A DNA stretch of 64,000 nucleotides from Escherichia coli (GTDB taxonomy: Bacteria; Pseudomonadota; Gammaproteobacteria; Enterobacterales; Enterobacteriaceae): the NCBI RefSeq assembly GCF_024502345.1, contig NZ_JALDNN010000001.1. One strand, given 5' to 3'. The position numbers and the translations under genes are program-made. This document shows, in pieces, positions 24,581-24,726 of the stretch (position 1 is its first letter; each line of letters begins with the position of its first letter). Below the pieces are notes generated by a model, which was not told the DNA's origin, did no database searches, and saw only the letters and a list, made by a program, of their open reading frames with translations.

Positions 24581-24596
24581 TGTGATATAGTTCACA
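24581..24596. promoter_or_regulatory. candidate CRP-type site (perfect TGTGA-N6-TCACA) in pdeC/yjcB intergenic region
   Basis: tgtgatatagttcaca; about 145 bp upstream of the yjcB ATG. Confidence 0.45.
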
Positions 24597-24726
24597 AAAT
24601 TAATGAAACAAACAGAGTGTTTCATTTTTGTGTTCTGCAAGCCCCGCGATAGCCAGAGTGTACCACGCCTCCCGTGAACAACGCCGCGCTGTCCAGGGCA
24701 TCGGCTCTTTTCAGAGGAATTGTTTG

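Follow-up and report, generated by a model that had tools for sequence, protein, structure and literature searches.

We found that the CRP site upstream of yjcB in Escherichia coli lies directly on the core promoter of this gene, and that CRP most likely represses yjcB by occupying the promoter. In the model that we consider probable as a whole, yjcB is repressed by CRP at the core promoter, activated by MarA/SoxS, and transcribed into an mRNA that begins with a 5′-terminal hairpin. The palindrome on which the model is built is a real CRP binding site that has already been reported in the literature. Genome-wide methods have picked it up repeatedly, and the effect of a crp deletion on yjcB is published, hence little is added here by way of discovery of the site as such.

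The window, by which we mean the entire 64-kb stretch of E. coli DNA that was analyzed, is identical to the MG1655 genome over positions 24297 to 25008, an interval that holds yjcB and the spacer separating it from pdeC (yjcC). Because of this identity, window positions convert exactly to MG1655 coordinates by genome = 4275041 + (24727 − window). The pdeC gene is divergent from yjcB, on the minus strand with its ATG at 24297, and the original prediction was correct in stating that no plus-strand gene lies upstream of yjcB. The yjcB gene encodes a small stress-induced inner-membrane protein and adjoins soxRS. Downstream of it lie the convergent ssb and then uvrA. Between yjcB and ssb, a single strong hairpin (fold −17.8 kcal/mol, z = −5.2) is called by a terminator scan and serves as a bidirectional terminator for the two genes, and on the ssb side of it Term-seq 3′ ends map to MG1655 4274757/8 on the plus strand (Adams 2021). 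The features of the region are collected in Table 1.

Table 1. Features of the yjcB promoter, leader, and gene in window coordinates
Feature	Position	Strand	Details
Marbox gcaataaaagtcacg	24539-24553	.	−60 to −46; MarA ChIP-seq (PMC5684230)
Weak −35-like hexamer CTAACA	24565-24570	+	−34 to −29; 15-bp spacer; published prediction
22-bp CRP site AATTGTGATATAGTTCACAAAA	24578-24599	.	Core 24581-24596; center 24588.5
Putative extended −10, TG-a-TATAGT	24583-24591	+	Hexamer TATAGT at 24586-24591 (−13 to −8), equal to the CRP spacer
Primary yjcB TSS (A)	24599	+	Cappable-seq; MG1655 4275169, minus strand
Inverted repeat, 9-bp AT-rich stem and 7-nt loop	24602-24626	+	+4 to +28 of the mRNA
T-rich tail TTTTGTGTTC	24626-24635	+	Escherichia only
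GC-rich long-range stem GCCC..GAUAGC / GCUGUC..GGGC	24641-24699	+	RNAalifold consensus (predicted)
Shine-Dalgarno AGAGGAA	24713-24719	+	Precedes the yjcB ATG
yjcB CDS	24727-25008	+	93 aa; ATG 24727, stop 25008
Intrinsic terminator common to convergent yjcB and ssb	25014-25038	.	Terminator scan, fold, Term-seq

Three further observations concern the neighborhood of yjcB. The gap between yjcB and ssb is described in the literature as an integration hotspot for an 18-kb defense island in some strains, and the window is free of this island. The pdeC gene (21934-24297) is intact in MG1655 but is broken in the window by a minus-strand copy of IS1 at about 22894-23620, with the InsB ORF at 22894-23397 and the InsA ORF at 23316-23591. 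The pdeC/IS1 junction was found as a single 100% piece in none of 5,426 complete E. coli genomes, and the insertion therefore appears to be the strain's own, in a lineage that is possibly rich in IS1. Lastly, a long TTG-initiated ORF (24628-25008, 126 aa) contains yjcB. Its TTG is apparently the start annotated in EAEC 042, since the CRP position of −39.5 given for that strain fits a count from the TTG. We rejected the extension as coding because the CRP-to-ATG distances of different species, and with them the leader lengths, differ by numbers of nucleotides that are not multiples of three.

The CRP-consensus palindrome that had been predicted upstream of yjcB is present: the core, TGTGATATAGTTCACA, reads TGTGA-N6-TCACA, with both pentamers perfect and the canonical 6-bp spacer between them. 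The 22-bp consensus for CRP is AAATGTGATCTAGATCACATTT, with which the full site agrees at 16 of 22 positions. An exact TGTGA-N6-TCACA occurs once in the 64-kb window, where shuffling gave an expectation of 0.08. Since 8 of 100 shuffles also contained at least one such core, the match by itself is suggestive, and it is the conservation of the site together with published binding data that settles it as real. In PhyloScan (2007), yjcB ranked 2nd to 16th among genome-wide CRP-site predictions, within the top 20 (PMC1794230), and the CRP target list obtained by Genomic SELEX in 2011 includes the yjcB<>yjcC spacer (PMC3105977). The CRP occupancy that had been proposed as a check on the prediction is likewise on record, as CRP ChIP-seq in EAEC 042 (2025) yielded a peak with a score of 338 over exactly this motif, TGTGAACTATATCACA, at p = 3.1e-7 (PMC12360894). 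In the table of that study, yjcB carries the flag "N", meaning that RegulonDB does not list it as CRP-regulated (PMC12360894). Upon deletion of crp in W3110 (2026), yjcB rose from 156 to 474 TPM (log2FC 1.61, q = 8e-6), and the paper reports confirmation of this increase by qPCR (PMC13339887). This derepression, recorded in glucose medium, amounts to only about 3-fold, and part of it could be indirect. A literature search for pdeC or yjcC together with CRP returned nothing further, and no experiment with purified components or site mutants that shows direct repression of yjcB turned up in the papers searched. With occupancy and crp-dependent expression taken from the literature, and with conservation at orthologous loci as described below, this symmetric 22-bp sequence has the properties of a CRP site.

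The position of the site relative to the start of transcription is what gives it its likely function. The start was taken from the Cappable-seq data of Balkin et al. as analyzed in PMC12987492, in which it was seen under novobiocin, rifampicin, and tetracycline and was absent in the control; its support is thus this one data set, under antibiotic stress only. Transcription begins 3 bp past the right CRP half-site, and the core of the site accordingly covers −18 to −3 and is centered at −10.5. The hexamer TATAGT between the half-sites also forms part of a published sigma-70 promoter prediction for yjcB, CTAACA-15-TATAGT (Shimada 2014). As read from the sequence, the left half-site would additionally supply the TG of the extended −10. 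The CTAACA hexamer is poorly conserved as a −35 across species, and so poor a −35 would fit a promoter that is activator-dependent or of the extended −10 type. A marbox bound by MarA lies upstream of these core elements and yjcB is also among the targets of SoxS in ChIP-exo (PMC5684230), so the arrangement of a mar/sox/rob promoter, a MarA/SoxS-bound marbox upstream of the core promoter, is found here from the literature. Induction of yjcB is reported for antibiotics, for multiple stresses, and for pH 5.5 in W3110, and at pH 4.4 about 60-fold more yjcB RNA and about 200-fold more ribosome footprints have been recorded.

To follow the site beyond E. coli, we used a protein-anchored scan that yielded 37 yjcB loci from Escherichia, Citrobacter, Kosakonia, Phytobacter, Yokenella, Leclercia, Atlantibacter, Erwinia, Serratia, and others. 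A CRP site was found upstream of yjcB in 37 of 37 Enterobacterales loci, as a perfect TGTGA-N6-TCACA in 33 and as CGTGA-N6-TCACA in 4. Among the 27 Enterobacteriaceae-type loci, the spacer of the site is TATAGT in 24, TACAGT in two, and TAGAGT in one. The spacer has a high G+C content in Erwinia and Serratia, where the last base of a TG-extended TATAAT or TACAAT coincides with the first T of TGTGA and the CRP site is displaced about 11 bp, or roughly one helical turn, further downstream. The predicted start then falls inside the CRP site, and judging by these motifs the overlap with the core promoter would be kept in both genera. We observed that the CRP site accompanies yjcB whether its upstream neighbor is divergent pdeC, another gene, or soxS, and also where pdeC is about 2.3 kb off. 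Because the site follows yjcB whatever lies upstream, it belongs to yjcB and not to pdeC. At the level of the species, an 81-bp core was present in 5424 of 5426 complete E. coli genomes, with at least 95% identity in all but 6, and in two divergent E. coli lineages the CRP 16-mer and the −10 were unchanged.

The same set of loci revealed a linkage of soxS and yjcB across Enterobacterales (L004, L013, L026, L032, L033, L036, L037, and L039). In the linked loci, soxS is found at about 1500-2250 and yjcB at 2501, and in those that lack pdeC, soxS is the immediate upstream neighbor of yjcB and has the same orientation. This linkage fits yjcB as a target of SoxS/MarA, and it suggests that pdeC was inserted between soxS and yjcB, or lost, in some lineages. 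One locus (L003, NZ_JAUFQN010000013.1) is labeled Flavobacterium paronense, and its yjcB-ssb-pdeC region is 100% identical to that of E. coli; it is almost certainly E. coli contamination of that assembly.

In the mechanism that we propose, the CRP site would act as a high-affinity operator for cAMP-CRP laid straight over the yjcB core promoter. RNA polymerase and bound CRP would compete for the −10 region, which would lower yjcB transcription, a step that we infer from the geometry, and activation would come from MarA or SoxS, and possibly Rob, on the marbox during antibiotic, oxidative, or acid stress. A site that overlaps the −35, the −10, or +1 is the arrangement expected for occlusion, and at yjcB the −10 hexamer is the very spacer of a site that spans −18 to −3. 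The placement expected for Class I/II activation is not seen, with the center at −10.5 and yjcB rising in the crp deletion. Based on these two properties, we regard CRP as a repressor of yjcB and not as a classical catabolite activator. The catabolite control of yjcB that the original prediction had proposed is therefore borne out insofar as CRP binding and crp dependence are documented, but its direction is repression instead of classical activation.

Repression of this kind has precedents. The CRP-repressed promoters cyaA P2 and galP2 each have a CRP site that overlaps core elements, though the element and the position differ from those at yjcB. What yjcB shares with such promoters is a site over the −35, −10, or +1 in place of contact-mediated activation. 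At the kpsM P2 promoter of EAEC 042, two consensus CRP half-sites likewise flank a near-consensus −10 hexamer, which is TATAAA there and TATAGT at yjcB, and sharp repression by CRP of this promoter with its embedded −10 was demonstrated by mutagenesis and in vitro transcription (PMC12360894). Unlike kpsM P2, yjcB has the TG of an extended −10 and a MarA/SoxS box, and its arrangement is conserved across the order whereas kpsM P2 is pathovar-specific. Moreover, kpsM P2 has been dissected experimentally, whereas occlusion at yjcB is what the geometry would predict. The EAEC 0536 promoter is also repressed by CRP, with its −35 inside the CRP site, and thus involves another element and another position than yjcB (PMC12360894). 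It is the agreement of the geometry, the kpsM P2 precedent, and the crp deletion phenotype that argues for repression of yjcB by CRP. Class I/II promoters such as lac, galP1, and CC(-41.5) likewise bind CRP at a symmetric site of 22 bp, but their sites are centered at −41.5, −61.5, −71.5, and so on, upstream of the core promoter, as opposed to −10.5, and the crp deletion phenotype of yjcB is the opposite of theirs. With the promoters of the mar/sox/rob regulon, yjcB shares a marbox under a MarA peak, its standing as a SoxS target, and induction by antibiotics and oxidative stress; it differs from them in adding a CRP operator on the core promoter.

Just downstream of the start lies the hairpin with TTTT that had been placed about 100 nt before the yjcB ATG. 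It is present as described: the arms ATGAAACA and TGTTTCAT enclose the loop aacagag at 24603-24625 (+5 to +27), TTTT follows at 24626-24629, and the T-run is 98 nt from the ATG. Transcribed from the mapped start, the inverted repeat would fold into a short, AT-rich stem-loop with 3 unpaired nucleotides ahead of it at the 5′ end. Its RNA fold has an energy of −6.9 kcal/mol with 2 G-C pairs in 9. Against dinucleotide shuffles this corresponds to z = −0.65, 46 of the 200 shuffles having reached as good a fold, and the first 36 nt of the mRNA gave z = −2.07 against a mononucleotide shuffle. The arms are kept while the loop varies across E. coli lineages, other Escherichia, and other genera, and the T-run is replaced outside Escherichia by TTCAGTG, TTCGTG, AACGTAG, and similar sequences. 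Some hairpin beginning 1-6 nt from the predicted +1 was found in 20-22 of 27 Enterobacteriaceae; Kosakonia and Phytobacter show compensatory or G-U changes, and in Atlantibacter the register is shifted. In the alignment of 27 species, 78% of cells were paired compared with 74% in shuffles, and three pairs showed double changes, so that covariation is marginal. In 13 of the 27 species the central pair is broken, 3-5 of them have lost the stem, and RNAalifold found no consensus structure for the hairpin. About 22 of 27 genera retain GTTTCA in the right arm while the remaining leader has diverged. When the Rfam 15 covariance models were run over the hairpin, the best match was ctRNA_pT181 with 20 bits and E = 8.7, which is at chance level.

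We interpret this element, with moderate confidence, as a 5′-terminal mRNA stem-loop that is possibly stabilizing. Stem-loops of the ompA type at the 5′ ends of E. coli mRNAs were reportedly described as stabilizing by Emory, Bouvet and Belasco in 1992, and like them the yjcB hairpin lies within a few nucleotides of the 5′ end, its stem starting at +4. In the ompA type, no more than 4 unpaired nt precede the hairpin, and 3 precede it in the yjcB mRNA. The yjcB stem differs in being much weaker, AT-rich, and only partly conserved, and a stabilizing role is drawn by analogy. If this analogy holds, the hairpin might protect the yjcB mRNA from decay that depends on the 5′ end, which is a more tentative step of the model than repression by CRP.

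Two other foldings were observed around this hairpin. At the DNA level, the repeat extends outward to 24593-24633, with CACAAAA in the right flank of the CRP site complementary to TTTTGTG past the stem, and the minus-strand fold of the extended repeat has −11.9 kcal/mol and z = −3.1. This outer pairing is probably incidental, because other Escherichia lineages do not preserve it and its 5′ portion precedes the TSS. Further along the leader, the predicted GC-rich stem listed in Table 1 has 13 pairs, no compensatory changes, and no adjacent U-tract. It is kept in Escherichia, Citrobacter, and Intestinirhabdus (L013), the last with the apical 17 nt deleted.

We weighed repression by CRP and a 5′-terminal stem-loop against other explanations of the same sequences. 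CRP could instead be an activator, either in a Class II arrangement at a second yjcB promoter near 24630, for which the site would be at −41.5, or for pdeC; we consider this extremely unlikely. Lying in a divergent spacer, a site with a perfect core could in principle act on the gene at either side, and the EAEC table places the CRP site at −39.5. That number, however, is counted from the annotated translation start of the TTG ORF at 24628 and not from a transcription start, and it is therefore no sign of Class II. Upon inspection of the sequence, no −10-like hexamer was seen on either strand where a site at −41.5 needs one, 24599 is the only mapped TSS, and yjcB goes up, not down, without CRP. 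The origin of the −39.5 value and the lack of a suitable −10 together led us to reject a Class II start near 24630. As for pdeC, its promoter has been predicted in the literature (TTTTCA-16-TATAAA, about 24345-24318) at some 265 bp from the site, and the site is kept in loci that lack pdeC or have it about 2.3 kb away, so that we rejected a site serving that gene on both synteny and distance. The original prediction had read the hairpin as resembling a terminator or attenuator. In such a reading, hairpin and T-run would halt the majority of transcripts some 30-35 nt downstream of the start, leaving a tiny leader RNA and attenuated yjcB expression. In Escherichia, the stem is indeed followed by UUUUUGUGUU and is downstream of a real TSS, and within this genus the element resembles Rho-independent terminators and leader attenuators in having a stem-loop and a U-rich stretch in the 5′ leader. 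The stable G+C-rich stem of such terminators is not found, however: 2 of the 9 pairs are G-C, and the fold has −6.9 kcal/mol with z = −0.65. No alternative structure, such as an obvious competing antiterminator, was seen on inspection. The terminator scan skips the hairpin yet finds the true terminator at 25014-25038, and the U-run (UUUUUGUGUU in Escherichia) is absent from Citrobacter, Kosakonia, Phytobacter, Leclercia, and others in which the arms are kept. A lack of transcript 3′ ends at the hairpin had been named as part of what would refute the prediction; the Adams 2021 Term-seq lists, from conditions in which yjcB is poorly expressed, hold none at MG1655 about 4275134-4275143(−), and the only yjcB-associated 3′ ends in them are those of the ssb terminator. 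Finally, yjcB mRNA and ribosome footprints go up 60- to 200-fold under acid stress, which implies that read-through is efficient. A weak AT-rich stem that begins 3 nt past the TSS, with an unconserved U-run and no listed 3′ end, is not supported as a convincing terminator, and we regard an attenuator or small leader transcript as very unlikely.

The inverted repeat at +4 to +28 might also be no RNA element at all but the DNA operator of a second, CytR-like regulator beside CRP, a reading that we consider improbable. It would account for arms that are conserved as sequence around a variable loop and for a left arm fixed 6 bp from TCACA, with 25.5 bp between the CRP center and the repeat center. 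The arms AATGAAAC and GTTTCATT are each one base off the CytR octamers, several genera have ATGCAAC in the left arm, and CytR accepts variable spacers and always acts beside CRP. Both E. coli arms, however, lack the core C/G of TGCAA/TTGCA, their spacing is 9 and not 10-13, and CytR-like cores in both arms occur only in the Atlantibacter group. The G-U-type and compensatory changes and the register shifts suit an RNA better than a protein site, and yjcB goes unmentioned in the main text of the comparative CytR study by Sernova and Gelfand. Compared with a CytR operator (AATGCAAC / GTTGCATT, core TGCAA/TTGCA), the E. coli sequence AATGAAAC-N9-GTTTCATT was rejected for the missing core C/G and the spacing of 9. 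In its wider form, with a CytR-like or other DNA-binding protein docking beside CRP and locking the SoxS/MarA-activated promoter, the proposal seems to us just as doubtful. If true, a complex of CRP and a partner on or just past the start site would couple carbon status to the mar/sox response. A hairpin with no function of its own, that is, an AT-rich palindrome kept by descent or by constraints of promoter escape, is possible, if on balance rather unlikely. Its fold is no better than those of dinucleotide shuffles, a consensus structure is absent, several genera have lost the element, and Erwinia and Serratia lack it. Such a palindrome would nevertheless not be expected to have invariant arms around a changing loop across E. 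coli lineages and other Escherichia species, or to retain the right-arm GTTTCA in about 22 of 27 genera despite a diverged leader. We therefore keep the 5′-terminal stem-loop as our reading of the hairpin.

A few other candidates for the same stretch were tried and rejected. A small upstream ORF, which in E. coli would run for 24 codons from the left-arm ATG (24603), is not conserved: in E. albertii a stop cuts it off at codon 5, and in Citrobacter its length differs. The arms contain TGAAAC and GTTTCA, which we take to be Cra half-sites, and they lie 9 bp apart instead of abutting. A PhoP-like direct repeat, TGTTTC-N5-TGTGTT, was noticed by eye, and its spacing is not conserved across species.

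Taken together, the analysis adds to a known CRP site its promoter geometry, in which a repressor operator would double as the extended −10 of a MarA/SoxS-activated promoter. It also adds that the overlap with the core promoter appears to be kept across Enterobacterales, with the site shifted by about one turn of the helix in Erwinia and Serratia, and it corrects the view, tempting at first, that the downstream hairpin is an attenuator. As yjcB is flagged as absent from RegulonDB, it could join the curated lists of the CRP regulon. For the biology of E. coli and its relatives, yjcB offers a compact and testable example of how carbon status, signaled through cAMP-CRP, may gate a gene of the stress regulon.
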